Part shown: positions 2,346 to 52,170 of the stretch, piece after piece
Layout: each line of letters starts with the position of its first letter
Numbering within the stretch: the stretch's first letter is position 1
Assembly (NCBI RefSeq): GCF_022045235.1
Contig: NW_027266275.1
Span: 12,214,001 to 12,278,000, forward strand
DNA: 64,000 nt
Reading direction: 5' to 3'
Source of the DNA: Haliotis cracherodii
Taxonomy: Eukaryota
Notes under the pieces: model-generated
Told to the model about the DNA's origin: nothing
The model's database searches: none
Seen by the model: only the letters and a program-made list of their open reading frames with translations
Translations under genes and position numbers: made by a program

Positions 2346-4600
2346 CACAATAACCGAACGCAATAACCGAACTGCACATGTGAATCTTACTGATAAAAGA
2401 CCTTTCAGAATTATTTTAGAGTTTCATTTTAGAGCATGGTATTCGCTGTGCCCTCTGCGCATGTTCGTGTCAACGAATCAGAATTCATTTGTGCGTATTA
2501 AAAATCATTTCCGTCTCCATCACACTGTCACTACAACCCGTTGTACTTTTGATTGGTCGTCAGGGAACTCCTTTACTGTCGCTTTGATGACTTTGGCCTC
2601 ACACAATCCCAGTCCCTTCTCTGTATTATAGTGAACACTTTCTTGTGAAAACATCTGACTGTGTACAAGCAGGCCACAACATGGACTGTGCGTTGAACTG
2701 TATTTTGATATGAATATTCGGTGTTGGTCTATATTAGAAGATTGACAATGTAATATTTAACGTTGTCATCACTCAATAATATTTATTTACAGTAGACATT
2801 CCATACAATGTTCCTATACAAAGTCTATATAATGGGGATTTCTAAGAAAGGCTACCTGGACTATTGTCACGATTTTATTTCCAAACTGAAACGAAGAGGA
2901 TAACCCAGTAACGCACTAAACTAAACTGGGAAATCGGTACATGATCACTTCTTGTACTGACATAAACGACATTACCTGCATACATGTCAACACATATTTG
3001 TACAAAAACGAAGTTGCAGAATATTTAACGATATAACAAAAACCCTGTTTATAGCGTGTCTAGTGTGCGTATATTGAAATGTGCCGATCTCTTACGTTGT
3101 TATCGGTATCATCCCAGATTCGATCCAGGAACCTACATGTACGTTTTCATCAGCTTTAATCGCTTTAGAATCACCACTAGTCGGGATATCGCAGTTGCCT
3201 CCCTTGTATGTCATGCGGAAGGGACAGGTTGGCACAGGTTAGCACAGGAGTGTACCTCGGCGAGATTTGGTTATTTCAAGGCCTCAAGGACGTACAATTA
3301 AATCTCACACAGGTCACATGAAGAACTAGTATACCTGTATATTCATCGATAGTGTCAACTTACATGAGGTATGTGTTTCTTAAATTATAGATTCTGGTTT
3401 AATTTAGTTTTGTCAACTCATGAGACTTCAAACGAAGAGAAACCGAAAGTAGGAATTGTTGGACCCAAAGTTATAATGAAATGTAAAATATATAGATGTA
3501 ACTTTCTTTTATTGTTATGAGTTTTATGTATCTGTGACATTCTGGTAAACAAAGCCATTTTTTTCGACTTGTAAAACTGACAAAATAAGGATATCTTGCA
3601 TGTTGGCGACTTGGTATCGAATACGAACGTACAGTTATCTTCCATGTATTGGGATTTCGGGGAGGGTGTGTGTGTGTATCTATTGACTATGAAGGAAGGA
3701 TGGTGTTAATATAATTTATTCATTTATACTGACTGTTGGTGCTCATTTTAAATTATTGTCGACAATGCCACACTTGCACGAGTATATTGGCATAAATTAA
3801 GCCTGCTCATACGCATTGTCACAATAATTCATATATACAGTATTAGTTTATCTCTTCAAGGTAAATCCTGTATTGTGTGGAAAGAACCAGCTTGTTCTTT
3901 TAGCTGAGCCAGTACGTCATTACGAAACTGAGTTTAACTATATTGAGGAAAAGGTACGTTTCTTAGACGCCTTGTTTGGCATGATAGCAATATATGAGGA
4001 ATAATGTGTTCCCAAAGCACTATACAGCTTTTGTAAAATCTTCAAGGTGATTTTAAAAGGATATTAAAGTCTTATCACAAGAGCGACTAAATTTGAGCGG
4101 ATGGTTACAATGTGGCTGACTGGCTGCTCGTTCCCTGACGACTTGACTCCAAGCTGTGGGTTTGCCTGGTCGACACTCGACATATACACTGTCCTTTTTG
4201 AACAACAAATTATATGTCAAACAGTAAATAGGGTTTTGTCAGCTGTTATGAAATAATTCAGTTGAGTTAACACGAAGAATAAATCCTATTGCGATTTACA
4301 GAGAATTTACTCCCAAATCCCAAGTACCCAACGCTTATCACAGGGCGACTATTTAAAGTTTGAACGGTGTGTTACAATGTGAGACCTGACTGACTGTGTC
4401 TCATTGTACCCTCGCGACGTGATTCGATGCTCATGATGTGAGCAGTTGGTTTGCCTGGACGACACTCCACACAATACTCATCACTATGATGAAGTTGACA
4501 TGTGATGTTGTTGCGGCATCAAAACAACATTGACTTCTCCGAGACAAACGTTTGATATCGAATAATAGACGTTTCAACATATTAAATGGTGCACTTAACA
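2300..4600 (+). promoter_or_regulatory. Conserved upstream block of TRIM genes (putative promoter and non-coding exons); paralogous to about 11390-13720, 25450-27750, 34540-41540 and a fragment at about 22900-23190
   Basis: Alignable between A and B genes. Contains donor-like catgag|gtatgt (about 3368 / 12501) and an acceptor/donor-bounded ~93-nt segment (about 3861-3953 / 12989-13081). RING exons start at ag|ATG, which implies upstream UTR exons. Confidence 0.5.
3439..3450 (+). promoter_or_regulatory. IRF-binding / ISRE-like motif GAAACCGAAAGT upstream of B1
   Basis: Exact match to the IRF consensus GAAA(G/C)(T/C)GAAA(G/C)(T/C). Confidence 0.55.
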
Positions 4601-4645
4601 TGTGAATTGTTTTGGTATTATATGTTTCTTTAAACAGTATTTCAT

Positions 4646-5140
4646 ATGTAACAAATGTTATATTTGGGATAACACTTTGTTAGTAAAGTACAGATTCTCG
4701 TACCTTTTTGGGTTTGAGTCCCGTCCGAGATTCCCACCTACCCTTGCCAGTGTGAAGCACCTAATCACCAGCACACAAAGTCAGCGATCTAACCCACTCA
4801 GCCACTGGGGCTCCCTCAAAAATGAAAGTCCGACGACTGGTTGTCTAGATCACGTACTTTGAGTACCCATCTGACATGTGTAAATTGGCACAGCTCCCAT
4901 GGCCGAAAGCTATGAATACACAATGCCATTTAGAAAGTGGTCAAATGTAACAAATATTATATTTGGGATAACACTTTCTCAGTAGGTACAGATTCTCGTA
5001 CCTTTGTGGGTTGAGTCCCATCCGGGATTCGAACCCACACTTGCCAGAGTGAGGCACCTAATCGCCAGCACACAAAGTCAGCGATCTAACCCACTCAGAC
5101 ACCGAGGCTTCCACAACAATGAAAGTCCGACAACAGGCAG
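4646..5140 (-). mobile_element. Two tandem tRNA-derived SINE-like units (about 4646-4850 and 4945-5140); duplicated at about 27800-28293
   Basis: Minus strand shows A-box-like TGGCTGAGTGG and B-box GGTTCGAATCC. The two units align at about 300-bp spacing. Confidence 0.6.
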
Positions 5141-6175
5141 TCTGTTTGAGCTCCGACGTCCATTATCAGGATATATACGGCAGCATGTTTCAGCCTGATT
5201 TCGACTCAGTTTGTCGGCAGTGTTGAACTTATACCCCTCTTGTATGCATGCATTCACATATTTGGAATAACAAGGTATACATGCCACTCGATTGTGTCTT
5301 CACATGTAGGTGAATATACCGTACTTTTGTAAAGTTAGAACCGTCAAGTAAGTTTTATAAATGTTGGTACACACTTTTGCAAACTGGAATTTGCATTTAT
5401 ACATTTACACGTATGTGAAAATATACAGATGTGTGCAAATGCACGTAGATTTGCGTGGGTTTCATGCGAATCACCATGTAGCCATATCAGATATTCATCG
5501 GAATAAGTTGTTTCTAATAGGAGCCTATGTTTGTTCGAATGCACTGGGTATAGGGAAGTAACTCGGTTTTAGTTGTGACGTCTGTCAGCTGTCAATACGG
5601 CTAGCCTGTACGCATGAATGCCGACAAGATAAATTCATTATCAACCGATCCATCGGTACATAAAAGCGACAAAGACCTCTCCACAGCCACAAGAGATCTC
5701 TTCCAAAAGCAAATACAATTCCGACTGTATCATGAGCATGAGTCTATGAAGCACTATAAAATACTGATGATACCAGTGTTCGCGAAAAGCTGAGAGTATC
5801 CTGCCCCACCGGTGGTATCCATTACAAATACATGCAAAGTCAAGTCAGTTGTTTACCCTAAAACACAGGAGAACATATGGTAAAGTCAAAAAAGGGAATT
5901 GCATCGGACATGTTTGTCACGGATGCGTCCAATTTGGAAATGTCCTCCGCATGTACACCATAAGACTTCTTGGAAGCTCTATTGAAGCCCTGAATGATGT
6001 AACCAGAGTCATTATAAAGAGGAAGGGTAAAAGTATATTTGCAGCTGTGTGTACATATTAAAACGATATATATATATTATGGTTGTAAAACGATACGAAT
6101 CAAGCTCAGTCATATCATTATTGTTTTGAAGAAAATGAAATGCATAAATCATTAAACTATGAATGCATTTAATAG

Positions 6176-7964
6176 ATGGCTACCCGGAACGAAAACAAAA
6201 TCAAGGATAATTTCCTGACGTGCTCCATCTGCTTCGAGACGTACACAGACCCCTGTACACTGACCTGCCACCACACCTTCTGTCAGAGATGTATCACCAA
6301 GTACATCCAAACCAGACCAGATTCTGTACAGTCCAAGACGATCCCCTGTGCCTGCTGTGGACAAGATACCATGGTCCCCCACCCCAGCAGGCCAGTGGAG
6401 GAGTGGGCGGGGCAGATCAAACCCAGCATCATTCTACAGAAGTTGACAAACAAACCAGGTAAAGTGGAAACGTTCTAAATGTTGAACCTATTTTATTATT
6501 TATATTAATACGTCTTGTTTGATTAAAACGTAGAATATAAAAATTAAATGTACTTAAAAGAATATTTGTTGATTTGAGAAATCTATATTACTTACCAAAG
6601 ATGTTTACAAAATATGCCATGAATAGTGAGTGAAAACAGGTATATAAAACATATTAGAATTTCAGAAGGCTGTTATGTTTAGACAATAACATGTATCAAC
6701 GAGAACAGAAATGTCTACCCCGTAAGTTACAGGTTGATTAACGTTGAGGCCTGGCATGTAAGTTGTAACTACTGTTTGATTTACTGGTTTGTTTACGTCT
6801 ATGCTGTTACATTCTGTCTGAGTATTAAACACTAAAGACATTTTATATTAACTGAAATAGATTTCAATTATCATGGGACGATACTCACATCATTCTATGT
6901 TTTCAGTGTTAACAAACAATTGCTGCACAATCTGTCAGCAACTAGGGGAGATAACTGCAGGAGTCTTGAGATGTCCTGAATGCGAAGTAGACCTCTGTGA
7001 AAGATGCGTGAAGATACATTGGGTGAGCCCTATGTCAAGTAACCATGACCTCTTTGACCTGCAAACCAGAGATAAGGAGGGAGAGTGTAAAAGCGACAAG
7101 CCGATTCCACAGAGGGAGACAGCTGACCACAATAACCAAGGTAAAGGCAATCAGAAGGCACCACTGCTGGTCAACACAATTGATACCTATCGAATCAGTG
7201 GCAAAATGTCCTTCAATATCCGTGACGTCGCAGTCCTGGTTGTAGACGGTGTACAGACAGTTGTAGTCACCGACGGGGACAATCACTGCATAACATCGTT
7301 CTACACCAGAAAAAAGACGCCACGTTTCAGTACGGGTCGTGTGAAAAAATCTCCATGGGGTGTAACACAGCTGAAAGAGAAGCAGGTACTGGTTGCTGTC
7401 CCCGAATCATGTGAAATTGTAACAGTGGGTGTCAGCCCTGGCCTGGTGCTGCTATCAACCATCACAACACGTACTGGGTACTACAGTCTCGCTGTTCTGA
7501 GTCCTTCATCTCTAGCAGCAAGTACAGACTATTGTGTTGATATCCTGGATATGTCGGGGCTCGTGTTGAGGTCAGTTAATGCATACAACAATATGCGACT
7601 ATTTACCTACCCCGACTACATATGTGTCAACAACAAGGGCAACATACTCGTGTCTGACTGGGGGGAGAAGTCTGTGACATGTCTAACATCAGAGGGGGAT
7701 GTTGTGTGGAGATACGCCCCTACCGGAGACAGAGCTCTCGGTGTTCCTCATGGAATTTCCACTGCCAGGACTGGAGACATACTTCTGGTGGACAGTAATT
7801 CCAACAAGGTCATACAACTGACAGAGACGGGAGAGTTTGTCAGAGACCTCCTCACGTCAGACGGTAACGTGTCTGGCCTGAAGAGTATTTTCTGTCATAC
7901 ACGCGAATCCTTCTTTATCTGTTGTAATGCTGAAGTGAAGGAGTACAAATGTAGTCGATACTAA
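6176..7964 (+). CDS. TRIM-like gene B1, join(6176..6458,6907..7964), 446 aa: RING + B-box1 + beta-propeller, no B-box2 or coiled coil
   Basis: C3HC4 RING (CSIC..CHHTFCQRC..CACC). ag|ATG at 6176, donor CCAG|GTAAAG after 6458, acceptor ttttcag|TG at 6907. The phase-1 junction restores the frame of ORF 6873..7964. Confidence 0.85.
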
Positions 7965-8629
7965 TTCGGTCGTGCTACAACGTGAGACCAAGACAACTGA
8001 CAAAAAACAAGGTTTAGTCGAGATCCAGTACCAAGTAGTATGATAAGTATCCGCTCAACAAACCAAGTCCTCAACAGGATTGTGGACGATAACAATAGTG
8101 ATTAGTGTCAGAGTATAAAACGAAAACTATTGAAACTCACAAGGTACATGTTCCATGTCACAACGTTTAGCTTACTAAAAATATATATACAATTACTCTC
8201 TGTAAAATAGTAGTATATGAAGCATAAATAAAGATGACACTACAATTCCGACCCAACCCATAATGGTATTGCAGTGTTGGAGGACTGTTGTGAGAGACAT
8301 GATGTTATTTCTTCAGGGCACGCAATTTTGTTGGGAAAGGAGAATCCGAACAATTTATTTTTTCACAATGCTTTTTTTTCAGGACAGACAGAGAACAATT
8401 TTTTGTGATAAAATCTGATAAATAATTACTTATTTAACATTTATTCAAATGGTTCAAGAATTTGCCTTCAAAATGCATCTTCTTTTTCTTTGTTTCTGAA
8501 TAACCATGTCGTTTTATTTGTCATAATGGGCTGCGAGGTCGTTATGCGTAATAACCACGTCATTGATAATTATTGGTTTTATACTATGTCCATGCACGCA
8601 AGTCGCAAATTGTTTGCCTGGCTTCATTA

Positions 8630-8810
8630 TCTGTATGTTATTTACCTGGGTTTATCATCAATGTAGTAGTTACCTGTATCCGTCATCTTTGTAGTATTTA
8701 CCTGTATCCATCTTCTATGTACTACCTATATTCACTATCTGTGTAGTATTTACCTGGCTTTGTCATATATGTAGTATGTGCCTAACTTCGTCATATATAT
8801 GTGAAAATGT
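8630..8810. repeat. Degenerate short tandem repeat (tatttacctg..tcatctatgtagta); copy at about 31785-31940
   Basis: Recurrent tacctg / tgtagta motifs at about 25-30 bp spacing. Confidence 0.55.
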
Positions 8811-9604
8811 AACATATGATATATTTTATAAATAAAGTGGACACAAATATTCGTACCAACCAATTGATATTCTTTGAGTGTTCATTCAGAGGTTTCATTT
8901 TCAAAAAAAAACATTTTAGCTCTTTTCATTAAATAGTTAGTAATCGTCAAGGTTTACGTGTTGTCCTCGTATAATTATGCAACATTTACCTGGCTTAATT
9001 GTGTATGTGTGTCTTATTTATCAAATGAGGCGTGTTGTCTTCTGGTGGAGACAGTGGCACAACGTTCATGCCTAACTGTGGTACTAATAGTTCGTGTATT
9101 TCCGGAACAACCGAATGAATGGTTACAGGCGCCGTCATGCTCACCATGTAACAGAATGGTAGATTTTGTAAACCTTTTAGCCTTTGTCATTCCAATATGT
9201 TGATTGTGTAATTGCCGTTAGGCATTTCTGTTCTCTTATTTTAATCATATATCATTCTTCAATGCCGTCCGAAAACATCTTGAAATAGCTGTCATTGGTT
9301 GTTATTGTATAACTGTCTCTGGTACTGCTGCTTCCTTCCATACACCTTTGCCACACCTGACGGTAATCGCACAACAGTGACAGGAATGGTGATACACACA
9401 AGCATGACATTGGTTTAGTGACAGCACTGAGTACTGCTTCAAAAATATTGTCCTTCTCCACTGAAAGTCATATGGTGTCAAGTATGTGTGAAGAGGGTAT
9501 TCGGAAAGATTTTATCAACATAATCTAGCAATCCAAGGATCAACATTATCATTGAAATTATTATTGAGATAACTCATAAGCGATCTTGTTCCATTGTGTG
9601 TATG

Positions 9605-9952
9605 GGGCGGTGGGGTGAAATGGGTTAACGTCTAGTTCAAGGTTTGTTCACCTATACAGCCACGAGCATTGTCCTGTGTGCATTAACTTGTCCAGATTTA
9701 TGTCGGTTTTAAAGTGCTAGCCCACTGAGATACCATGCCTCAGTTTAACATGTACACCACCATATTATATTCACTCCGAGCCAGCCAGTCCTTGATTTAA
9801 CCTCTTAATGTCACGCAGTTTAACCACCCCACTAAGACATATTAAATTAACCCCGAGGCAGCCACTCCTTTTTGTATGACGCGGAAGGGAATCGAACTAC
9901 CGACCTTTTGCTCTCCAAGCAGATGCTCTATTCACCAGACCACGGAGGCAGT
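9605..9952 (-). mobile_element. tRNA-derived SINE (V-SINE-like); copy at about 32733-33083
   Basis: Minus-strand tRNA-like head (gcctccgtggtctggtg..gttcgattcc) followed by cgtcatac and the gactggctggctcgg / cagtgggctagcact body. Confidence 0.65.
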
Positions 9953-10258
9953 TCAAGGCGTGTATACAATGAAGGACATAAGGGCGTGCATCTAAGGCAG
10001 TGAGGAGACATGTGTAGGCGTTCTGTATAAAAAGGCTTGGCTTGGTCTATTTGAAATTCTTATCAAGTTTGGTTTGCATTTGTTAACTGAAAGTTTCTTA
10101 TTCTTATCAGTGTACAATTCACATACGATAATACATAGTTAAACAGTTTGTCTTTCCTTCACACAAACACTTAATAGGTCTATACCGAAAGAACGAAATG
10201 TTGTTTCCTTTACTGATTGATTTCAGAATTGAAGATCGACTGCGCAGAACCATGACAA

Positions 10259-10356
10259 ATGAGGTGAGGTGAGGTGAAATTGGGCTTAACGTCACGTCCA
10301 AGATTATTGCACTTATATAGCGACGTGCATGCGTGCGCGTGTGCGTGTGCGCGTGC

Positions 10357-10389
<33 letters not shown>

Positions 10390-10627: not shown

Positions 10628-12563
10628 TTATAGTGTGCTGGGCGTATTTCCAACGCTTTCGATAACCAGTGAAGGTTCTATAAATTATTTACATCGTTGA
10701 ACATGCATGACCGGTTTAAGCTCTAAATCCGTTTAAATCAATGTTTCGATTTTAAAATGTTCAGATGTCAAGCCATTTGATGGTCTGTTGTGATATTATA
10801 GCCAATAAATTCAAAATGTCAACGCAAGAGAAAATTCTTGAAATAGTCTTGAATATCTGCCGAAACAGATTCCACAGGGCGTAAGAGGCAAAATAGTGAC
10901 CCATAGTATTGGTAACATCGTGCATCAGGTTGACAAGCTGGCTATGAAACTTTGATTTCGTTAAGGGTTTCAAGTTATTCAATATCCCACACACTGCTTC
11001 TGTATTCTGTGCATATTCAAAGTGACACTGCATTGTGCACATACTTCCATTGCATGTTCAAACGTAATGATCATGTTAAGACTAATATTCACTTTTATAC
11101 TATGTTATCTGTCTAGGTATTTGTTATCATATAGTAATTACTTTAAACACAGTTGTACAATTATTTTTGATTTATGACTCCAACGACAGGAAACAATCAG
11201 TCTCGACTATATGGCATATATACCTTCATTGGGGGTAAAAGACAAAATAAGGGAGACAATTACATGAATGAATCACTGCAAATCAGTGGTGACACCAGGT
11301 GTTCACGAAAAGGCAACCTGGACCTGCAGGTTTGGTACAAGCTCCGATTAAAGTGACTTCGTTTTAAGAGTATTTGGGAGTGAAGTCGTGGTTAATGTAC
11401 GGATAATATAGGGATAACCCACGGATAATGCATGGGGAATGCACGGATAATGCACTTATACTGTAAGAATGATGCCGCGCAACGCAATAACCGAACAGCA
11501 CAGGTGAATCTTACTCATAAAAGCCTTTACAGAATCATTTTAGAGTCTCATTTTAGAGCATGATATTCGCTGTGCCCTTTTCGCATGTTCGTGTCAACGA
11601 ATCAGGATTCATTCGTACGAACTAAAAATGTCAGTATGCAAAAGAGATAAAATCCTTTCCGTCTCCACGATACTGTTTCCACACACACCCCGTTGTACTT
11701 GTGAACGGTAACTTGTACTGCCGCTTTGATGACTTTGGCCTCACACAATCCCAGTCCCTTCTCTTTATTATACTGAACGTCTTTTTTGTGAATACATCTG
11801 ACTGTGTACAAGTAAGGACAAAACATGTACTTTACATTGACCTGTATTTGTATCTGAATTTTCAGTGCTGGTCTTTATTAGCAGCTTGACAATGTAATTA
11901 ACGTTATCATCACTCAATAGCAGTGCCATAGACGTTCCAAACAATGTTGTTGTACAATGTCAGTATAATGGGGAATTCTAAGATAGGCTGCACTCTGGTA
12001 TACTGTCACGAGTTGATTTCCAAATAAACCGCAGAGGATAAGGCAGTAATAGGTAAACACAGAACTAAATTGTGAAATCGGTACAAGATCACTTCTTGTA
12101 CTGACAAAAAGGACATTGCATGTATACAGGTTCACACATATTTGTACAAACACGAAGGTGTATAACATCTTACCATATAACAATATCACTGTTTATAGCG
12201 TATTCAGTGTGTGTATATAGAAAAATGCTGATCTCTCACGTTGTTATGGGAATCATCCCTGATTCGTTCCAGGAACCTGCGTTGTCATCAGCTTTCATCG
12301 CTTTTGAACGACCACTTGTCAAGATTTCGCAGTTGCCTCCCTTGTACGTTATGCGGAAGGGACAGTTTGGGGTTTGCACAGGTGTGTACCTTGGCGGGAT
12401 TTGGTTATTTCAAGGCATCCAGGACGTACAATAAAATCTCACACAGTGCACATGAAGAACTAGTATATATTCAGAACACCGAGAGTGTCAACTTACATGA
12501 GGTATGTGTTTCTTAAATTAGTTTAATTTTAGTTTTGTCAACACACGAGGCTTCAAACGAAGA

Positions 12564-12575
12564 GAAACCGAAAGT
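12564..12575 (+). promoter_or_regulatory. IRF-binding / ISRE-like motif upstream of A2
   Basis: GAAACCGAAAGT at the position equivalent to 3439. Confidence 0.55.
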
Positions 12576-13932
12576 AGGAATTGTTGGCCTCAAAGTAAAA
12601 TACATTCATGTAAGTTTCTTTTATTGTTTTATGTTTAATGTATATCTGACGTTCTGGTGAACAACGTTATTTGTTGATGTGTAAAACGGACACAATAAAG
12701 ATAGGTATCAGACTTAGTCCCGAATACTAACGTTCAGTTACCTCCCTTGTAATGTGAAAAGGGTTGGGTGGTGTGTCTATTTACTGTAAAGGAAAGCTTG
12801 GTGTTAACATAATTTATTTATTTATTTATACTAACTGTTGGTAGTTTTTAAACCTTTACAGGAAACACGTGCGCATTTCAAATAAGGTCGATAATGTCAC
12901 AGCTGCGAGAGTTTAATTTGGTATCAATTAAGCCTGACCTCACAATATCACAATAATTCATATATTCAGTTTTAGTTCATCTCTGCAGGTAAATCCTGTA
13001 TTGTGCGGAAACAACAAGCTTGTTCTTATAGCAGAGTCAGTAAGTCATTACGATAATGAGTTCAACTATAATGAGGGAAAGGTTTAGTTCAAATACAAGG
13101 ATAAACAAATATAGAGATCTAGACCCACGTTTCGGAAAAGCCTTGTTTGGCGTTATATCAATATATGTATTCCCATAGTACTATGGAAGGGTCAACATAG
13201 ACACATTGGGAACACATATTTATATCTTCAAGTTGATTTGAAAAGAATATTAAAGTCTGATTTACTGAGAGACTATCCCACTTGTGGCTGAATATATATC
13301 TCAAGTATCCAACGCTTGTCACAAGTGTGACTCAATTGGAACAGTTTCTTACAATGTGTGATCGTACCCTGACCTCTGGACTCAATGTTTGTCATACCAG
13401 CAGCTGTTGGGTTGCCTGGTGGACACTCGACATATTCACTGTCACTTTTGGAACAAGGAATTATATGTGATGTGCCAAACAGTAAACGGATTTTTTTCAG
13501 CTTTTATGAAATAATTCAGTAGATTTTATGTGAAGCATACACCCTATTACGATGGTAGCTGCTGATGGTTTGAGTGGTCGAACCTGGACATACTACAGAT
13601 CAAAATGATGCAGTTGACATGTGATGTTGATGGTGAAGAAACTACATTGAGACAAACTACCCATTCGACTGTTAATAACAGATGTCTCAACATATTTAAT
13701 GACGCACTCAACACGTGAATGAATTTGGACATGTGTCACTTTGAGTAGTACTTCAGTTATGTCAGCTTGGTGCGGAAGGTAAGTCCCAAGTGGCTTTCAA
13801 CAAGACATTTTTGAAGATGTGCCAACCAAAATACACATTGCCCCATTACAGAGACAGACGAACTTCACCAGAAAAAATATATTTTGAAAAATTGAAAAAT
13901 GATTTCTGTGACCTTCAATTCTGGTTTTTCAG

Positions 13933-16238
13933 ATGGCGACATCCCAGAATGAGAAAGTGAGAGAATTCCTCACCTGTGTGATCTGCCAGGAACTGTACAC
14001 AGACCCCTGTACACTGAGGTGTGATCACACATTCTGCAGGAAATGTGTCACTGCATACATCCAAACCAGACCAGATGCTGTACAGTCCAAGACGATACCC
14101 TGTGCCTTCTGTCAAGGAGATACCAAGGTCCCCGACCCCAGCAGGCCAGTGGAGGAGTGGGCGGGGCAGATCAAACCCAGCATCATTATACAGGGGCTAA
14201 TTGACACCCTCGGGGCTGAGGGTGATGTACCAGGTTAAGTTCAACCAGACGTAACATTCACATCGATAAGTTTATCAAGTTCAAGAAAAGATAAATTTAT
14301 GACAAAAAGAAACGTATTAATCAGAAAAAATGTCAATCCAGTTTGATTAATTATTTAGTGGAAGGTGAGCCAGGTGAACAAGAGAAAGGTACAACCAGTT
14401 GTAATATTTAAGTTGATTTAATCACCTGTGTTTATGATATGGTATTTATTCATGAGAAATTGAAACTTGAAGTAGTTCATCAAATTGGATCGGTTATTGA
14501 ACTTATAATAAAGACTGTTCACATGCTTAGCGTTCCAATATTGTTTTGTTTTAGAGACAATACGTTCGTACTTCTGTTCACAGAGACGTCAAGCACCTGC
14601 TGCACGATCTGTCAGCAAATAGGGGAGACAACTCCAGGTGCCTTGTGGTGTCCTGAGTGTGAAGTGGTCCTCTGTGACAGATGTGTGAAGACACACCGGG
14701 TGAGCCCTGCGTCACAGAACCATGACCTGTGTGATCTGTCATCTAGGTCAAAGGGCAGACGGAGGGTCAAGTGTACAGAGCACAAGAGTAGCAATGTAGA
14801 GTTCCACTGTAAAGACTGTCAGAAGGCTGCTTGTCAGACATGTTGTATCATCTACCACAGAGCTTGTAAAACTGTCGTCACCATTGAGTCTATGAAGCCA
14901 GAGATGAAGACAGTACTGCTGGAGAAGAGATTTGGCATGGGGAAGAGACTGAAGGTGAGGTCGAAGAAGGTAGAGATGAAAAACGAGAAACTACAAAATA
15001 GTTCAAGAAGCACGGAGTTAAAAGTGCAAAATATTAAATCAATCTGTCAAACAGCTATAAACAAGATTAAAGAGAAAGAAACACAACTCTTGGATGAACT
15101 GAATCACATAACACAGACGCACGCCGGCCAACTCCGCTCAGGCGTGAAGCTTGACGAGATTGAGATGCAGATGTACAGACAACATTGTGAGTTCATTGAC
15201 CAGGCCTTGGTATCAGACTGTGAGATGGACCTGTATGACGCGTATCAGGCCTGGGAGTGGGGGGCTGTAGAGTTTGGGGATGTCAGGGACACAGACACAG
15301 CAGACACACGGAGAATAGATGACATCAGGTTTGCACCTGACACTGACAACGTCCAGCACATCCTAGATGACCTACAGCTGGGGGAGATTGACGTCACATA
15401 CCAGGATGAGGGACTATGTCCGCCGTCTCCAGTCCTGATTGACACGATAGATGGGAGGATGGCGGATGATGATAAGTTGGGGCCTGATCTACAGAACATC
15501 ACAGTCCTGTTTGTAGACGGTATGCAGACAGTTCTGGTCAGTGACTGTAGGAACATGTGTATGAAATCTTTTTATACAAGAAACAGCCAGTCAGGTCACA
15601 GTAGACTTCCCCTGGATAACTCTCCCCATGGTGTAACACAGTTGAAGGAGAAGCAGGTGATGGTTGCTGTCCCTGACTCCCGTCAGATTGTAACAGTAGA
15701 AGTAACCCCTGATCTGGTGCTGCTCTCAACCATCACAACAAGCAAGGACTACTACAGTCTTGCTGTACTGAGTCCATCATCTCTTGCAGCTGGTGGTCAA
15801 GATTGTGATAGTTACGGCATTGTTGATATCCTGGACATGGCGGGACACGTGCTGAGGTCAGTCACTACACACAACAATGAGAAACTGTTTGCCTACCCCT
15901 GGAACATGTGTGTCAACAACAAGGGCAACATACTCGTGTCTGACTGGGAAGCTGAGTCTGTGACATGTGTGACGTTAGAGGGGGATGTTGTGTGGAGATA
16001 CGCCCCTACCGGAGACAGAGCACTCCGCAGGTCTTCTGGTATCAAAACCACCAGAACTGGCGACATCCTGCTTGTAGACTGCAACAAGGTGATACAGCTG
16101 ACAGAGTCGGGGGAATTTGTAAGAGATGTTCTCACGTCAGAATATGATGATAACTACATGTGGGATATATTCTGTGATAAATACGGATTCCTCTTTCTGT
16201 GTACAAACACAGAAGTGGAAGTGTATATGTTAGTGTGA
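13933..16238 (+). CDS. TRIM-like gene A2, join(13933..14233,14584..16238), 651 aa: RING, B-box1, B-box2, coiled coil, beta-propeller
   Basis: RING CVIC..CDHTFCRKC..CAFC. tttttcag|ATG, donor CCAG|GTTAAG, acceptor ttcacag|AG (phase 1, in frame). B-box1 CTIC..CPEC..CDRC..H..H; B-box2 CTEH..CKDC..CQTC..H. Confidence 0.9.
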
Positions 16239-21228: not shown

Positions 21229-21698
21229 TAGGCAGTGAGGAGACGTGTGTAGGCGTTCTGTTGAGGTGTGTGCATCTAACGCAATGAGTAGACATGTGTA
21301 GGCGTTCTGTTGAGGTGTGTGCATCTTAGGCAGTGAGGAGACGTGTGTTGGCGTTCTGTTGACGTGTGTGCATCTAAGGCAATGAGGAGACATGTGTAGG
21401 CGTTCTGTTGAGGTGTGTGCATCTTAGGCAATGAGGAGACATGTGAAGGCGTTCTGTCGAGGTGTGTGCATCTAAGATAGTGAGGAGACATGTGTAGGCG
21501 TTCTGTTGACGTGTGTGCATCTAAGACAGTGAGGAGACATATGTAGGCGTTCTGTTGAGGTGTGTGCATCTAAGGCAGTGGGGAGACGTGTGTAGGCGTT
21601 CTGTTGAGGTGTGTGCATCTAAAGCAATGAGGAGACGTGAAGGCGTTCTGTTGAGGTGTGTGGATCTAAGACAGTGAGGAGACATGTATAGGCGTTCT
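21229..21698. repeat. 49-bp minisatellite, about 9.5 units
   Basis: Unit catctaaggcagtgaggagacatgtgtaggcgttctgttgaggtgtgtg; starts at 21273, 21322, 21371, 21420, 21469, 21518, 21567, 21616. Confidence 0.95.
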
Positions 21699-22432: not shown

Positions 22433-22590
22433 ATGGCTACCGCCCGGCTCGGGAAGAGAGTGAAAGATAGCTTCCTGCCGTGCTCCATCTGCATCGAGAC
22501 GTACACATACCCGTGCAAATTGACCTGCCACAAAACTTTCTGTACATCCAACCAGACCAGAGGCTGTACAGACCAAGACGAATAACCTGT
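22433..22590 (+). pseudogene. Degenerate B-type RING exon
   Basis: MATARLGKRVKDSFLPCSICIETYTYPCKLTCHKTFC aligns to the B1 RING start. An internal deletion and frameshift follow TFC. The acceptor before ATG reads caa instead of ag. Confidence 0.8.
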
Positions 22591-23654
22591 CTAGATTATC
22601 CGCCAACTTGCATTAAAAAGTAAGTATATTTTGCATGACTCCGCACAGAGGTTCTACTGCCATGCGGCGATGGCCTGTAAACAATTCAGATAATCAAGTG
22701 ATTGGTGAACCAGAAAATCCAGTGACACGATAGTGATTTGGGTGAAAGTAATAATATCAATGTTAACTTTGAATTACGCCTGTTCCGTACAAGTACAGAG
22801 ATTCTGCTGCTTATAAGTAAAGAAACGTTTACGACATATAGTCGTTTTGCAACACAGTAAGAGGGAGGGCAGTTTTAATGTCTCGGCCCAAACATTTCTT
22901 TTGTAGTTCCCTCCGTGCACAGTTGTGTATCTTGGCGGGATTTGGTTATTTCAGAGACTATATAATAGAGTATATGGTCTCTGGTAAATAAAGATAGATA
23001 GTCTTGAATACTGACGTTTAGTTACCTCCCTTGTATTGTGAAAAGGGTGGGTCGGTGTGTCTATTGACTGTAAAGGAAGGCTTGGTGGTAACATAATTTA
23101 TTTATTTATACTGACCTTTGGTAGTTTTTCAAACTTTAATAGGAAACACGTGCGTATTTCAAATAAGATCGATAATGTCACACCCGCGATATAGCTGGTT
23201 GTTGTTTGGCTGTCAGTGTAAACATGAAGTCACACGTACTAAATAAAATTGTGTTTAGATCTTGGCCTACGTCCTTTGAGGAAAGAAATTGTGATAAAAA
23301 TTATAAGAATTGACTTAATTCTTAAGTAACATTCATATCGATCAGTTAATCATGTTCAAGAAAAGATAAATTTATGACAAAAAGATCTTAAAACGTATTA
23401 ATCAGAAATCAGTTCGATGAATTAATTGGTGGAAGGTTAGCCAAGTGGACAAGATAAAGGTACAACCAGTTGTAATATTTAAGTTGATTTTATCACCTGT
23501 GTTTATGATATGGTATTTATTCATGAGAAATTGAAACTTGAAATAGTTCATCAAGTTGGATCGGTTATTGAACTTAAAATAAAGACTGTTTACATGCTTA
23601 GCATTCCCATATTGGTTTGTTTTAGAAACAATACGTTCGTACTTCTGTTCACAG

Positions 23655-24730
23655 AGACGTCAAGCACCTGCTGCACGATCTGTCAGCAACTAGGGGAGAC
23701 AACTCCAGGTGCCTTGTGGTGTCCTGAGTGTGAAGTGGCCCTCTGTGACAGATGTGTGAAGACACACCGGGTAAGCCCTACGTCACAAAACCATGTCCTG
23801 TGTGACCTGTCATCTAGGTCAAAGGGCAGACGGAGGGTCAAGTGTACAGAGCACAAGAGTAACAATGTAGAGTTCCACTGTAAAGACTGTCAGAAGCCTG
23901 CTTGTCAGACATGTTGTATCATCTACCACAGAGCTTGTAAAACTGTCGTCACCATTGAGTCTATGAAGCCAGAGATGAAGACAGCTCTGCTGCAGAAGAG
24001 ATTTGTCATGGGGAAGAGACTGAAGGTGAGGTCGAAGAAGGTAGAGATGAAAAACGAGAAACTACAAAATAGTTCAAGAAGCACGGAGTTAACTGTGCAA
24101 AATATTAAATCAATCTGTCAAACAGCTATAAACAAGATTAAAGAGAAAGAAACACAACTCTTGGATGAACTGAATCACATAACACAGACGCACGCCGGCC
24201 AACTCCGCTCAGGCGTGAAGCTTGACGAGATTGAGATGCAGATGTACAGACAACATTGTGAGTTCATTGACCAGGCCTTGGTATCGGACTGTGAGATGGA
24301 CCTGTATGATGCGTATCAGGCCTGGGAGTTGGGGGCTGTAGAGTTTGGGGATGTCAGGGACACAGACACAGCAGACACACGGAGAATAGATGACGTCAGG
24401 TTTACACCTGACACTGACAACGTCCAGCACATCCTAGATGACCTACAGCTGGGGGAGATTGACGTCACATACCAGGATCAGGGCACATCTCCAGTGCGTG
24501 TTGACGTGATAGATGGGAAGATGGCGGGTAATGAGGTGGAGCCTGATTTCAGTGGCGTCACAGTCCTTGTTGTAGATGGTATACAGACAGTTGTAGTCAC
24601 TGACTTTAATAACAAGTGTGTGAAATCCTTCTACACCAGAAACAACTTGACATGCCACAGTAAACTACATGCTCCCTTGTCCGAGTGTAGAAAAACAGCA
24701 GTAGTGGTAATTAAGTGGGACAGTTTTTAA
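23655..24730 (+). pseudogene. TRIM-like A3: orphan exon 2 (B-boxes, coiled coil, start of propeller); RING exon absent and propeller truncated by an 888-bp deletion
   Basis: Intact acceptor ttcacag|AG at 23655. Colinear with A1 at offset 24036 until 24666, then jumps to the sequence at 1519 (offset 23148). The intron matches the A2/A4 intron from about 23326, but no RING exon precedes it. Confidence 0.8.
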
Positions 24731-26591: not shown

Positions 26592-26603
26592 GAAACCGAA
26601 AGT
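26592..26603 (+). promoter_or_regulatory. IRF-binding / ISRE-like motif upstream of B2
   Basis: GAAACCGAAAGT. Confidence 0.55.
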
Positions 26604-29328: not shown

Positions 29329-31033
29329 ATGGCTACCCGGAACGAAAACAAAATCAAGGATAATTTCCTGACGTGCTCCATCTGCTTCGAGACGTACACA
29401 GACCCCTGTACACTGACCTGCCACCACACCTTCTGTCAGAGATGTATCACCAAGTACATCCAAACCAGACCAGATTCTGTACAGTCCAAGACGATCCCCT
29501 GTGCCTGCTGTGGACAAGATACCATGGTCCCCCACCCCAGCAGGCCAGTGGAGGAGTGGGCGGGGCAGATCAAACCCAGCATCATTCTACAGAAGTTGAC
29601 AAACAAACCAGGTAAAGTGGAAACGTTCTAAATGTTGAACCTATTTTATTATTTATATTAATACGTCTTGTTTGATTAAAACGTAGAATATAAAAATTAA
29701 ATGTACTTAAAAGAATATTTGTTGATTTGAGAAATCTATATTACTTACCAAAGATGTTTACAAAATATGCCATGAATAGTGAGTGAAAACAGGTATATAA
29801 AACATATTAGAATTTCAGAAGGCTGTTATGTTTAGACAATAACATGTATCAACGAGAACAGAAATGTCTACCCCGTAAGTTACAGGTTGATTAACGTTGA
29901 GGCCTGGCATGTAAGTTGTAACTACTGTTTGATTTACTGGTTTGTTTACGTCTATGCTGTTACATTCTGTCTGAGTATTAAACACTAAAGACATTTTATA
30001 TTAACTGAAATAGATTTCAATTATCATGGGACGATACTCACATCATTCTATGTTTTCAGTGTTAACAAACAATTGCTGCACAATCTGTCAGCAACTAGGG
30101 GAGATAACTGCAGGAGTCTTGAGGTGTCCTGAATGCGAAGTAGACCTCTGTGAAAGATGCGTGAAGATACATTGGGTGAGCCCTATGTCAAGTAACCATG
30201 ACCTCTTTGACCTGCAAACCAGAGATAAGGAGGGAGAGTGTAAAAGCGACAAGCCGATTCCACAGAGGGAGACAGCTGACCACAATAACCAAGGTAAAGG
30301 CAATCAGAAGGCACCACTGCTGGTCAACACAATTGATACCTATCGGATCAGTGGCAAAATGTCCTTCAATATCCGTGACGTCGCAGTCCTGGATGTTGAC
30401 GGTGTACAGACAGTTGTAGTCACTGATGGGGACAATCACTGCATAACATCGTTCTACACCAGAAAAAAGACGTCACGTTTCAGTACGGGTCGTGTGAAAC
30501 AATCTCCATGGGGTGTAACACAGCTGAAAGAGAAGCAAGTACTGGTTGCTGTCCCCGAATCATGTGAGATTGTAACAGTGGGTGTCAGCCCTGGCCTGGC
30601 GCGGCTATCAACCATCACAACACGTACTGGGTACTACAGTCTCGCTGTTCTGAGTCCTTCATCTCTAGCAGCAAGTACAGACTATTGTGTTGATATCCTG
30701 GATATGTCGGGGCTCGTGTTGAGGTCAGTTAACGCATACAACAATATGCGACTATTTACCTACCCCGACTACATATGTGTCAACAACAAGGGCAACATAC
30801 TCGTGTCTGACTGGGGGGAGAAGTCTGTGACATGTCTAACATCAGAGGGGGATGTTGTGTGGAGATACGTCCCTACCGGAGACAGAGTACTCGGTGTTCC
30901 TCATGGAATTTCCACTGCCAGGACGGGAGACATACTGCTGGTGGACAGTAATTCCAACAAGGTCATACAACTGACAGAGACGGGAGTGTTTGTCAGAGAC
31001 CTGCTCACGTCAGACGGTAACTGTCTGGAATGA
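29329..31033 (+). CDS. TRIM-like gene B2, join(29329..29611,30060..31033); C-terminal frameshift, possible pseudogene
   Basis: Copy of B1 at offset 23153. A 1-bp deletion near 31021 (AAC GTG TCT in B1, AAC TGT CTG GAA TGA here) replaces the last 31 aa with CLE. Confidence 0.8.
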
Positions 31034-34000: not shown

Positions 34001-35988
34001 TTCCACAGGGCGTAAGAGGCAAAATAGTGACCCATAGTATTGGTAACATCGTGCATCATGTTGACAAGCTGGCTCTGAAACTTTGATATCGTTAAGGGTT
34101 TCAACACAATCCTAAACCTGTAAAAGTTATTCAATATCCCACACACTTCTGTATTCTGTGCATATTCAAAGCGAAACCGCATTGTGCACATACTTCCATT
34201 CCATGTTTAAACTTAATGATCGCTGTGTGACGAATATTCACTTTTATACTATGTTATCTGTCTAGCTATTTGTTATCATGTAGTAATTACTTTAAACACG
34301 GTTGTACAATTATTTTTGATATATTACTCCAACGCCAGGAATCAATGAGTCTCGACTTTATGGCGAATATACCCTCATTTGGGGTAAAAGACAAAATAAG
34401 AGTGACAATTACATGAATGAATCACTGCAAATCAGTGATGACACAAGGTGCTCACGAAAAGGCAACCTGGACCTGCAGGTTTGGTACAAGCTCCGATTAA
34501 AGGGACTTCGTTTTAAGAGTATTTGGGAGTGAAGTCGTGGTTAATGTACGGATAATATAGGGATTACGTACGGATAATGCACGGTGAACGCACGGATAAT
34601 GCACAATTACTGTAAGAATGATGCCACGCAACGCAATAACCGAACAGCACAGGTGAATCTTACTGATGAAAGCCATTTACAGAATCATTTTAGAGCATGG
34701 TATTCGCTGTGCCCTCTGCGCATGTTCGTGTCAACGAATCAGGATTCATTCGTACGAACTAAAAATGTCAGTATACAAAAGAGATCAAATCCTTTCCGTC
34801 TCCACGATACTGTTTCCACACACACCCCGTTGTACTTGTGAACGGTAACTTTTACTGCCGCTTTGATGACTTTGGCCTCACACAATCCCAGTCCCTACTC
34901 CTCTCCATACTATGCAATGCCACATACCCAGACATATATACATACAACATAACACCAATATTTACAATGGCCCGGTCGCAGTGTCGACACACGGCAGTTT
35001 ATTAACAGCCAACTCCAACTCCTCTCATGAACATATCTACACTCCCATAATACATCATGATATAGGGAACTGTTGCCCGACACGTAATCCAGAGATCAAA
35101 AACAACATTTAAGAGAAAATTGCTCTCGACCATGTTCTCCCAACGAAGTCAACATTCCCTTTCTGGGGAGTTTACAGAATATCTATTTGATGTACATAAA
35201 CCTTATGAGGTATACAGTGTTATGACTTAAAATGAGCATGTTAGCAAGGTATACTGACTTCCGCCAATTACATAATGGAATATACATTCATTACACTCGT
35301 ACTATAAAAGGCTCGCCAGCCTACTCCATCACCGATTATACATTAAGGCCATAATTCTTGCACGTATTATAATGACTCATCTGCCCTATCCATAACGGAA
35401 TATACATTTACATCATATATTCCATGAGGGTATTATGACGGCTCGCCAGCCTAACTTCCAAGACTGACTGGATTACAAATAACTTTTTCACGTATTATGA
35501 CGACTCATAATGGGGTGTCAAGGTACATATATAAACCAACCCGATAGGGGCGGAACTGCTCAATGAAATTTCCCACACTTCACCTCTTCCCCGATCGCAC
35601 AATCCTTCTTGTCAGAATTGAAATTCTGCAAACAGAAACATACATAAATATTTTGTTCAATCATACATATTAATAATGAATTACAATAACTTATGTTCAG
35701 TGTTACTGCCGTGCTGACAAGCGAGAGAGACGAGCTACTTTCCACTCCCCTTATTTATACCCGTAACATACCCAGGCTAATTATCTCCCTTAGCCATTGC
35801 ATACCGCTAAGGAGAAAGCAGTTTCTTTCTTATTCATAATGGACTCAACCGAGAGAAACATCATTTCTCCTGTCCATACTATGCAATGCCACATACCCAG
35901 ACATATATACATACAACATAACACCAATATTTACAATGGCCAGGTCGCAGTGTCGACACGGGCAGAGACTCAAAGAAAGTCTATAGCC

Positions 35989-36927
35989 CTAGAGACAGGG
36001 AAACGACAATCGTCTCTGAAGATGATCTTTTATGTAACCGTCCTTGGCATTTTCACCTCTCCAACGTCCGTGTCTTTTAAACATTCGATCTGGTACGCCG
36101 TTGTTTGCCGCCTCTGACGCCCCACCACTACGCAAGCTATTAAGTTCATAACGTTTGATGTTGCACACAAATGGCATAAAAGCATCTATAAACAATTCTC
36201 TAAAGATATATTCATCAGAATGAGTCAATATTCCGGATAAGGCAAAGTATTTTTCCGTAACTTGTAACGGGACATAATTTTGAATTTGTCCTCCCAATGA
36301 CAAGCCATGAACCATCTCTGTATATGTCCGTTTTTGATTGTTCAATAAATAACATTATATGACTCTCATAAAAGACAATGTCAGATCGTCTAATGTGTAA
36401 TAGTTCTGCAGATCTCATGAATCCTGAATATGCTACAAGGCACATACACATAATCCTTACATTACAAAGTGTAGGATTAAGTATTGCTACATCAACTAAT
36501 TTCTAATAATCGGCTCCTTTTTATTAACACATTTGGCCAATCTTCTTTTTGCCGCTTCTACAACATTTTTGCATAAACCATTCTCAGTCGGGCTTTGCAA
36601 TCCTACTATCACATGAGCATGGCGAATACTATAAAACGCAGTTAGCACAGGGGCAAACGATTCACTCCGCTGAACAACAGACAGCGAATATAATGCGCAG
36701 TGCAAAGGTGAATTCGGTAAACTCGTAGCCATTAAACAAGAATGTGCAGACCGTTTCCACGCATCAAAACCTGTAAATCTGTATTTCCTAGCAGTGGAAT
36801 CTGCTATACAATTCGTCAGCAGATCAGGCAAACCCGCTGCCAGCCTCCTCACACCAGGAGGTAACGCCTTTAACTCCTCTCCATAAGCGCAACTTATCAC
36901 GTCCGTAAACAGAAATTGCACATTCAA
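35989..36927 (-). pseudogene. DIRS tyrosine recombinase (fragmented)
   Basis: YSGFMRSAEL (catalytic R), NSLRSGGAS (canonical HSLR), HGRW, DGY; split over three frames. Confidence 0.88.
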
Positions 36928-37144
36928 CGTATGCTGAAATCAACACACAGAGTTCGCATATTAAACAGCAAATCTTGTTCTCCAAACAATCCACCTCCAA
37001 TCCTAGACGGTACATAAGCTTGTTTAGATTTTTGCAAATACATGTGTTCTATCACCTGTGGAATAAACGAAGAATTGCGAGTGATAAGCGGAAAAGCATG
37101 CGGAATGTCATTCGGGCACAACCATGGTGCCTTTAGTACAACAT

Positions 37145-39026
37145 TCAGACATGTGTCTTAAGGTTCTTGGTACCATAGTTAGAGTTAGAGTACCTAGAAT
37201 TAAAACATGGCAAATTAGCATTGTACCAAGATGCAAATCTATCTACATCGTGAGGACCCCATCTGGCATCTATATGCTTAAATATGTGATTCGAAATGGA
37301 CCAATAATCGAAATCAACAATTTTACTCAACCTATCTGCGGTCTCATTCTCTGAACGCGGGATCTACTGCATATTCAGATTAACTTTTTGACTTGAACAC
37401 AACTCAAAAAAGTCCTTAACTATTCTTTGTAATTGCGGTTTCATACTACCCTTATCCACTATGGTAACCACATTTTGATTGTCAGTACACCACAATATTC
37501 TACGATATTCTACGAGAAAAACGGCCTTGAGTTCTTCCCATGTTGAACTATTTTTAGCCTCCTCCTCCTCCGACCACTGACCATGGGAATAAGCAGCATC
37601 CATTTCAACACAATACCCTCCATATCCGGTATCACTGGCGTTACTGTACACAACTCGACTCACAACTGTAGTCCTTATCAGTACTCTTCTCGATAAACGA
37701 GCAATGTTTTCTCTCCAATACTGTAACTGTTCAATGCTCTGTGACGACAACAAAACGTTGCTGTTCCACGATGACGCTGTCAAAACATCAATGCTGAAAA
37801 ACCTAGTCATTAATTGTACAACATTTCCCATAACTAGTTTCATTGCAATGATTTGTCCGATAATCGCAGCAACACGCCACACTGGTTGATAAGAGCGCCT
37901 ATTCACTAAAATAAATGTAATCGTTTCAGTCGCCTTATCTAACTTCCTCTGAGGAACATTTCAACACAGGGTGTTTGTATCCATGTGATGACCTAGCCAC
38001 TCAATAGACTGCGAAGGTAACCATAGTGATTTTTCGCATTTGGGTACAAATCCAGACTTGATCAAGTCTTCTTTTAAACCCTCGCCAGACGAACGTGTAA
38101 TAAGTTGCGATTGAGCTGATAAAATACTGTCATCTAAAAAGGTGACCACTTTCTTCCCTTTAGAACGCCATTTCTTGACTAACTGGCATGTAACCTTAGT
38201 AAACACATAAGGTGCTGAAGTTAACCCGAAAGGTAAGACTACGAACTTGAAATATTGCTTCACACCCGAAGCATTTTTCCATGAAAAACCTAGGAATTCA
38301 GTATGGCCTTCAAACATGTCTATATGATGATATGCTGAATGTATCAAATTTTATCAACCAATCGTTGACATCAATATGTTCAAGTGCAGTTTTCCAAATG
38401 TCATATTTGATTGACTTTTTGCTAACGTAATTGTTAACTCTGGACAGATCTAAAATCAAACGCTTTTTCCCTGACGACTGTATAGACACTGATAGAGGGT
38501 TAACGATGTACGGTGGAGACTCACATTTAATAATTAATTGTTTCTTATGCAATTCTAAAATAGCTTGGTTAACAAACTCTGCATGTCTCAACGCCGACCT
38601 GTTATTTCTTAACTCCATCTTTGAAGGCCTGGAAATAAAAGGACTTTTATATCCATTGTCTATAATATCAATTATGAATTTCTTGTCATCATCCGAATCA
38701 TCTGCTAACTCATTGGAAACATAATGTTTAACGGCCTCCCAACCGCCTTCCGACAAATCTGCAATTTTTATCAGCTTATTTCTTTTCTCTAATTTTCCGA
38801 TAGCTTCTTCCACACACCTTGACATATCATCATAATTCCCATTTTGAATGGCTTGTCTGGTATTAAGTAAGTCTTCTAAAACTTCCGAATTAACATTAAA
38901 CTGAATTCGATTTCCTTCCCTTGACCAAGAATATTCTGTTTCAGTCTTAAACTTCTTCAAACCTTTGCCTTGCTGAATAAATTCTTCTCTTAGGTGGGAA
39001 TTTTTTTCCCTCCACAGCACTCTCAA
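37145..39026 (-). pseudogene. DIRS gag / RT / RNase H / methyltransferase-like fragments
   Basis: gag-like KRNKLIKIADLSEGGWEAVKHYVSNELADDSDD; RT NPLSV..KKRLILDLS, AYHH, LPFGLTSAP, FLDD; RNase H SNASDTGYGG, SSTWEELKAV, TDNQNVV; MT-like WGPHDVDRFAS..NLPCFNSR. Several frameshifts. Confidence 0.88.
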
Positions 39027-40420
39027 TATCTCTTTGATTAGTGTCCATTTTTTTCAAAATGGCATCAAGTATTCCCGCTGTTGATGGATCGTCTTGCGAT
39101 ATAATAGAACTTGACACATATGTTAAGTGTTACTGCCGTGCTGACAAGCGAGAGAGACGAGCTACTTACTTACTTACTTACTTTGGAGATTTAACGTGCG
39201 CTTTCCGACTGATGCGTATTTCGCACACGGGCTTCTTCCCACGCCCCTTATTTATATCCGTAACATACCCAGGCTAATTACCTCCCTGACCCATTGCATA
39301 CCGCTAAGGAGAAAGCAGTTTCTCTCTTATTGCACTCAACCGAGAGAAACATCATCCTCTCCATACTATGCAATGCCACATACCCAGACATATATACATA
39401 CAACATAACACCAATATTTACAATGGCCCGGTCGTGTCGACACGGGCAGAGACTCAAAAAAAGTCTATAGCCCTAGAGACAGGGAAACGACAATCGTCTC
39501 TGAAGATGATCTTTTATGTAACCGTCCTTGGCATTTTCACTTCTCCAACGTCCGTGTCTTTTAAACATTCGATCTGGTACGCCATTGTTTGCCGCCTCTG
39601 ACGCCCCGCCACTACGCTACCACTTTATTATACTGAACATCTTTTTGTGAATATATCTGGCTGTGTACAAGCAAGAACAAAACATGTACTTTGCACTGAA
39701 CTGTATTTTGATCTGAATTTTCAGTGTTGGTCTTTTTTAGCAGTTTGACAATGTCATTAACGTTAACATCACTCAATAGCAGTACCGTAGACGTTCCAAA
39801 CAATGTTGCTGTACAAAGTCAGTATAATGGGGAATTCTAAGAAAGGCTGCACTCTGGTATATTGTCACGAAGTTGATTTCCAAATAAACCGCAGAGGATA
39901 AGGCAGTAATAGGTAAGCATAGAACTAAATTGTGAAATCGGTACAAGATCACTTCTTGTACTGACAAAAAGGACACTGCATGTATACAGGTTCACACATA
40001 TTTGTACAAACACGAAGGTATATAACATCTTACCATATAACAAAAACACTGTTTTTAGCGTATTCAGTGTGTGTATATAAAAATATGCTGATCTCTCACG
40101 TTGTTATGTGAATCGTTCCAGGAACCAACGTTGTCATCAGCTTTGATCGTTTTTGAATGACCACTTGTCAAGATTTCTCAGTTCCCTCACTTATACGTTA
40201 TGCGTTATGCGGAAGGGATAGGTTGGGGTTGGCACAGATGTGTACCTCGGCGGGATTTGGTTATTTCAAGGCATCCAGGACATACAATAAAATCTCACAC
40301 AGTGCACATGAAGAACTAGTATATATTCAGAACACCGAGAGTGTCAACTTACATGTGGTATGTGTTTCTTAAATTAGTTTAATTTTAGTTTTGTCAACAC
40401 ACGAGGCTTAAAAACGAAGA

Positions 40421-40432
40421 GAAACCGAAAGT
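40421..40432 (+). promoter_or_regulatory. IRF-binding / ISRE-like motif upstream of A4
   Basis: GAAACCGAAAGT. Confidence 0.55.
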
Positions 40433-52140: not shown

Positions 52141-52170
52141 TGAGACATCATTTTCCTGTGCAGGGAAGTA

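Follow-up and report, generated by a model that had tools for sequence, protein, structure and literature searches.

A candidate IRF element in intron 1 of an abalone TRIM-NHL gene expansion

Described TRIM and IRF systems and the abalone locus

Interferon-induced TRIM genes of humans are described as being under IRF-E/ISRE control (PMC2654144; for TRIM14, PMC6668374), and the consensus given for the IRF-1/2 element is G(A)AAA[GC][TC]GAAA[GC][TC] (PMC2654144). This type of regulation, in which TRIM genes carry an IRF element, is already familiar from vertebrates. In fish, induction by virus has been demonstrated for the finTRIMs (PMC13030082). For molluscs, the oyster factors IRF2 and IRF8 drive ISRE reporters and are themselves poly(I:C)-inducible (PMC5557890), software predictions place IRF sites in the neighbourhood of RLR and TLR genes of oyster (PMC5557890, PMC7064767, PMC9437489), and the antiviral-response genes of oyster include TRIM multigene families (PMC7064767, PMC9437489). 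A mussel gene named 'TRIM56', at most a putative orthologue, was up 3.6-fold after poly(I:C) (PMC7773633). Counting against an IRF reading, knockdown of single IRFs in Nematostella left the induction of antiviral genes undiminished (PMC8713801). These statements follow the accessible portions of the cited papers, as does the count of 22 TRIMs for Aplysia (PMC9334734), which compares with at least 150 RING-exon matches in the abalone genome. In the literature searched, which takes in few of the subscription journals that publish much of shellfish immunology, no description of IRF sites in abalone TRIM genes was found, and PMC8218723, PMC6353905, PMC9327721 and PMC6520846 contributed nothing further.

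The stretch analysed here, called the window, comprises 64,000 nucleotides of abalone DNA and holds four promoter-bearing TRIM genes with one shared 12-mer, GAAACCGAAAGT. The 12-mer is predicted from sequence to be, probably, a real and functional IRF element. On the whole we think it likely that this candidate element binds a molluscan IRF and renders most members of the TRIM-NHL subfamily antiviral-inducible.

The motif and its genes in the window

An earlier note on this DNA had pointed to four identical motif copies, and a scan of the window gave an exact match at all four places. They lie on the forward strand at 3439..3450 in gene A1, 12564..12575 in B1, 26592..26603 in A2 (the recent duplicate of A1) and 40421..40432 in B2, and no further exact or one-mismatch copies were present elsewhere in the window. 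When the four genes were aligned, the motif fell within an invariant island of 33 bp, AAACGAAGAGAAACCGAAAGTAGGAATTGTTGG (3430..3462, forward strand, in A1), the longest invariant run in an alignment of which 70% of 1405 columns were invariant (runner-up 20 bp; permutation p=0.002). Since self-comparison gave identities of 97% for A1/A2, 87% for B1/B2 and about 77% for A/B, the window contains two independent lineages only, as the note had stated.

The four genes are on the forward strand and share one plan: a RING exon, which opens with ATG right after the acceptor, stands between a short non-coding exon 1 and a single large body exon. For A1, contigs from putative RNA runs showed the joints 3368>6176 and 6458>6907, both GT..AG. 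These define a non-coding exon 1 at 3262..3368 (donor GT at 3369; 5' end approximate, from depth bins), a RING exon at 6176..6458 with the ATG directly 3' of the acceptor, as supported by the contig joint and Pfam, and a body exon at 6907..7964 with one B-box and NHL. For B1, the contig joints were at approximately 12501>13933 and 14233>14584, giving a non-coding exon 1 at 12371..12501 (donor GT at 12502; 5' end approximate), a RING exon at 13933..14233 and a body exon at 14584..16238 with two B-boxes, a putative coiled coil and NHL, the last two exons being also supported by Pfam. The A2 RING exon lies at 29329..29611 and its body exon at 30060..31033, where the ORF stops about 28 codons before that of A1. 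In B2 the RING exon (41761..42061) is followed by an intact body exon (42418..44045). A degenerate TRIM copy on the same strand, at 22433..24730, consists of a RING remnant, promoter fragments with neither exon 1 nor motif, and a truncated body; no exon-1 block was found beside this remnant or the one at 1-1234. The RNA nature of the runs is a guess, their treatments are coded, and the contigs, which give no expression level, may derive from paralogs. A conserved segment at 3860-3953 was considered as an extra exon; it is not claimed as one, because contig depth was not raised there and no joint was seen.

Pfam identified RING, B-box(es) and NHL, the architecture of a TRIM-NHL E3 ligase, with some B-box and NHL scores near or below the cut-offs. 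The A-type body is without residues 58-281 of the B-type body, which comprise the second B-box and the putative coiled coil; in the B type about 200 aa, possibly a coiled coil, separate the B-box from the C-terminal domain. The B1 body was 100% identical to a 651-aa Haliotis cracherodii record named 'TRIM56-like', and among the 120 matches listed all 118 named protein matches were from Haliotis, with H. rufescens, H. rubra and H. asinina represented.

As the contigs of A1 and B1 were spliced across the motif and their cover over it was low, the motif is intronic, 62-70 bp beyond the donor. This agrees with the placement in intron 1 proposed earlier. The measured range is slightly wider than the 65-70 bp given then, with spacings of 70, 62, 70 and 63 bp in A1, B1, A2 and B2, the third being 76 bp when counted from an alternative GTACAT donor. 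The description of the motif as upstream of the genes holds with respect to the ATG, but the motif is 3' of exon 1. Exon 1 is about 110-130 bp long, so that the site is close to the transcription start, itself approximate because it was read from contigs.

The motif as an IRF site and its conservation across the family

All four window copies match the IRF-E consensus. They miss the strict ISRE consensus, [AG]NGAAANNGAAACT, by one base, since the intron-1 site ends in GAAAGT and not in GAAACT. The IRF/ISRE match reported in the earlier note is therefore perfect for the IRF1/2 consensus and one base short for the strict ISRE. A second site, GAGAAATTGAAACT, located in intron 2 of the B-type genes (14454..14467, forward strand; also 23525 and 42288) and seen in the recent B-type lineage, ends in GAAACT and satisfies the strict ISRE. 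A possible binding partner is encoded in the same genome, which has two IRF-domain genes. One is of IRF1/2 type with a nearly unchanged recognition helix, KANFRCALNS as compared with KANFRCAMNS in the IRF-1 structure 1IF1; the second looks IRF4/8-like.

In order to avoid selection on the motif, the family was listed by its RING exon, and 150 of 315 candidates were scored. The core consisted of 54 RING exons, namely 52 at 70% identity or more and two partial copies inside clusters; an outer group of 18 was sampled from the remaining scored candidates. Upstream DNA was examined for all 72 genes (up to 7 kb, or 2.4-4.4 kb where already located). A DNA search with the exon-1 block returned 23 near-complete homologues. 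A homologous exon-1/intron-1 block was found for 33 of the 54 core genes, which together with one orphan made 34 blocks; for the other 21 core RING exons no complete block was found within 7 kb (coverage 6.3-7 kb). Six others and the remnant at 22433 had block fragments only, and, apart from the three promoters named below, the remainder had no detectable block. Among the 34 blocks, GAAANNGAAA was kept in 26, 23 fitted the IRF-E consensus, 19 had the exact 12-mer and 8 were broken; GAACCC, CCAAAA and GACAA are among the natural variants. In three further promoters exon 1 and its donor were present and the motif segment was deleted. The retention claimed for promoter-bearing genes was thus complete in the window (4/4), but it is not universal family-wide. 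Near the 18 distant TRIM loci there were no strict sites in 180 kb, and the reversed control gave two.

When the proteins of 38 intact genes were placed in a tree (FastTree, midpoint root), the motif-bearing genes formed the bulk of one clade. Loss of the motif was not associated with pseudogenisation: the ORF was intact in six of seven motif-broken genes, and it was broken or shortened in 8 of 26 motif-intact genes.

Conservation of the motif relative to the surrounding intron was then measured on the 34 blocks, sorted by position and tree into seven lineages. Pairwise identity between lineages was used as the measure because ML rates per site showed too little contrast to be of use. Mean between-lineage identity was 0.77 for the motif, while the 134 other non-overlapping intron-1 windows reached 0.65 at most (median 0.50). 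None of the 134 was as conserved as the motif, and neither was any of 212 over a longer range, the far end of which is deflated by truncation. Footprinting over more paralogs was among the checks named in the earlier note as able to refute its reading, and here it placed the motif above its flanks. The note had also cautioned that paralogy partly explains the conservation; this is true within the window, but is largely overcome by retention across deep lineages. The exact 12-mer is common to the window lineage and lineages Z1 and Z2, in which ungapped flank identity is 0.35 and 0.46, respectively; at these identities, neutral retention of a 12-mer specified in advance has an expectation of 4e-6 (Z1) and 9e-5 (Z2). 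Z1 and Z2 were originally noticed via the motif, though both are present on the RING list, their donors were inferred by alignment and not from RNA, and each alignment window had the motif at its centre. In lineage Y1 the variant affects only the free spacer, CC>CT, in three of three genes. Conservation reaches past the 12-mer, to GAAGA before it and AG after it. Another conserved element lies upstream, CAGTTGCCTCCCTTG at 3192..3206 (forward strand; also 12330 and 26340, and once more, within intron 1, at 12735), and between-lineage conservation of the upstream element CAGTTRCCTCCCTTG was 0.88, above that of the motif.

Sites at antiviral-gene homologs and alternative readings

Homologs of antiviral genes (viperin, IFI27-like, Mx and IRF) were picked in advance, and the outcome was mixed but favourable. 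A strict site on the reverse strand precedes the predicted ATG of the single viperin gene by about 580 bp. Of four IFI27-like genes found by Pfam, one had a strict site 1.2 kb upstream and one at 5 kb; a strict upstream site was absent in the other two. IFI27-like genes on C1 and C7 have a triple half-site ahead of a TATA-like box. The C1 motif cluster is part of an IFI27-like array, where GAAGCGAAACCGAAAGTAGAA stands about 90 bp upstream of a TATA-like box. The strict pattern occurred in one of four Mx genes, and a looser pattern, adopted afterwards, in three of four at an apparently homologous position. No strict sites were found at the two IRF genes in about 19 kb.

Genome-wide, the 12-mer was not enriched (180 vs 172 in the control), nor was the triple GAAA pattern (106 vs 108), for which satellites dominate; the 14-mer gave 52 vs 42. 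Other clusters of the 12-mer were inspected through 132 of 192 ORFs at 8 of 11 fetched loci, and an antiviral family, IFI6/27, was met at the C1 locus only, under the cut-off. The ORFs at the other loci gave Somatomedin B, PAN/COLFI, RNase H, a transposase or no match.

The best-surviving alternative, which we nevertheless regard as unlikely, is that the site is functional and read constitutively or tissue-specifically, by basal IRF1/2 in haemocytes or by another GAAA-binding factor such as Blimp-1/PRDM1. Such a reading would accommodate TRIM family contigs in seven of seven putative RNA runs, a conserved footprint broader than the 12-mer, and a TRIM site that is single where those at the IFI27-like genes are multimerised. 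It is opposed by the similar sites at the viperin, IFI27-like and Mx homologs, and as far as Blimp-1/PRDM1 is concerned also by the CC/CT spacer, which would be a better fit to IRFs than to PRDM1.

It is improbable that paralogy and gene conversion preserved the motif with no selection acting on it. Sequence exchange among paralogs probably does occur, since dS of the RING exon was unexpectedly low between deep lineages (0.11-0.16, vs 0.3-1.1 for the body exon), which suggests that the RING exon is homogenised within the family; in addition, at least 11 copies are motif-less with no visible cost. However, an identical island of 12-19 bp within flanks of 35-46% identity would be hard to attribute to ordinary conversion, given its shortness and the poor match on either side, and neutral retention of the pre-specified 12-mer is expected only at about 1e-4 to 4e-6. 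Least probable of all is a role in RNA as a purine-rich intronic splicing element by the 5' splice site of intron 1: across the 34 blocks the motif is indeed purine-rich and in every case sense-oriented, at 51-101 nt from the exon-1 donor, but fixed orientation is expected of homologous copies, at other antiviral-gene homologs the word is found reversed or ahead of a TATA-like box, and the donor is retained in paralogs that are without the motif.

Proposed mechanism and comparison with known systems

In the preferred reading, that of an antiviral-inducible IRF element, the site would be an IRF-bound enhancer just 3' of the transcription start. Sensing of viral RNA or DNA would activate or induce an IRF, an IRF domain would bind each of the two GAAA half-sites, which lie about 170-190 bp past the transcription start, and transcription would be raised from a promoter that is already constitutively competent. 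The element may have originated in the ancestor of the TRIM clade and been duplicated along with each tandem duplication, and its loss in some copies would have produced inducible and non-inducible paralogs, those lacking it being constitutive or silent. Molluscan IRF activity has so far been described mainly on mammalian reporters, to judge from the accessible parts of the literature; evolutionary footprinting speaks for the abalone motif as a candidate endogenous site, and the copies broken in nature offer ready-made controls. The uncharacterised TRIM expansion also supplies candidate antiviral genes in Haliotis, which is farmed, threatened and affected by herpesvirus.

The abalone genes resemble the human TRIM genes under IRF-E/ISRE control in that an E3 ligase gene carries this consensus element close to where transcription starts. 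In the human genes, so far as the available text of those papers goes, the element belongs to the upstream promoter and the host is a vertebrate that has interferon; in abalone, a mollusc, it lies in intron 1 and induction is predicted. In the oyster IRF work the targets, in the portions available, were mammalian reporters or software predictions and not footprinted endogenous sites. The abalone proteins share the plan of RING, B-box and NHL with TRIM2/3/32/71, Wech and TRIM56, names that the database matches carry as automatic labels.

The candidate IRF element on a TRIM expansion would make the abalone family an invertebrate parallel to the fish finTRIMs. Both this family and the teleost finTRIM/btr genes, as the latter are described in the accessible part of PMC13030082, are lineage-specific multigene TRIM expansions with a fast-evolving C-terminal domain and an antiviral link; in abalone, dN/dS summed over eight recent pairs was about 0.8 for NHL and about 0.3 for RING. 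The abalone genes are not themselves finTRIMs, since Pfam finds NHL and no SPRY. In contrast to finTRIM, the abalone C-terminus is NHL and not PRY/SPRY, the origin is separate, and induction by virus is inferred only. A broader proposal, which we hold tentatively and at somewhat less than even confidence, is that abalone has an IRF regulon readable from the genome, in which one type of element marks a TRIM-NHL expansion of about 35 genes together with viperin, Mx and IFI27-like genes. The expansion would have converged on the finTRIM strategy, with NHL replacing the SPRY sensor, and birth and death of the single intronic site would sort its paralogs, a natural series of wild-type and mutant versions of an endogenous IRF target in a mollusc, into virus-inducible and constitutive ones.

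Conserved sites around exon 1 and in intron 2

The highest conservation within the TRIM block, the homologous exon-1/intron-1 segment of the paralogs, was found for CAGTTRCCTCCCTTG(T), an element located at 3192, 12330, 12735 and 26340 of the window and also in paralogous blocks. Its copies flanked exon 1 on both sides, at approximately -232 and +170 relative to IRF-E, the candidate 12-bp IRF-1/2 element of intron 1. Genome-wide, 90 matches were obtained versus 3 for the control, about half of the 90 falling in the TRIM family of the window. Intron 2 of the B-type genes contained a further site (14454, 23525 and 42288) that fits the strict form of the ISRE consensus. Within the local cluster, 11 genes of this type had it, among them those whose intron-1 site is lost. 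Since the region is recent, conservation of the intron-2 site is uninformative.

Coding exons and A-type genes

Across deep lineages, dS of the RING exon (e.g. 13933-14233) was 0.11-0.16, whereas that of the body exon was 0.3-1.1, possibly reflecting exon-limited gene conversion or additional constraint. The NHL dN/dS was about 0.8 for recent pairs. The A-type TRIMs (body exons 6907-7964 and 30060-31033) had a RING, B-box, NHL architecture without a second B-box or a predicted coiled coil, and splicing was seen in putatively RNA-derived contigs; these proteins may be monomeric or decoy variants. Within A-type intron 1, a high-copy repeat about 200 bp long occurred twice (4642-4846 and 4941-5143). 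Near these repeats, segment 5148-5272 was joined to the RING exon in one contig and is possibly an alternative 5' exon.

Repeats and mobile elements

A degenerate element at about 35700-39600 on the minus strand, with reverse transcriptase-, RNase H- and tyrosine recombinase-like ORFs, lies immediately upstream of the B2 promoter block; from its motifs, we take it to be DIRS-like. Two tandem copies (99.4% identical) of a Gypsy-like LTR retrotransposon, sharing repeats of about 900 bp, occupy 44323-61075 and represent either a very recent event or an assembly duplication. A minisatellite with a 49-bp unit (about 9-10 copies) spans 21229-21698, with lone units at 9986 and 33117.

Related RING exons and antiviral-gene homologs

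An outer family of at least about 96 related RING exons forms tandem clusters on genome (G000) sequences C2, C23, C33, C37, C45 and C56; IRF-E was absent from the 18 loci sampled. At the IFI6/IFI27-like tandem array (C1:74.27-74.29 Mb, L040-L042; C7:11.147 Mb, L117), triple IRF half-sites precede a TATA-like box. Four Mx-like genes were found (C12:13.78-13.87 Mb, L132-L140; C18:6.84-6.87 Mb), three of them 0.3 Mb from the cluster of Z2, a deep lineage of the same TRIM family, and in these three the first GTPase exon is preceded, at a distance of 3-4.6 kb, by an IRF-E-like site.
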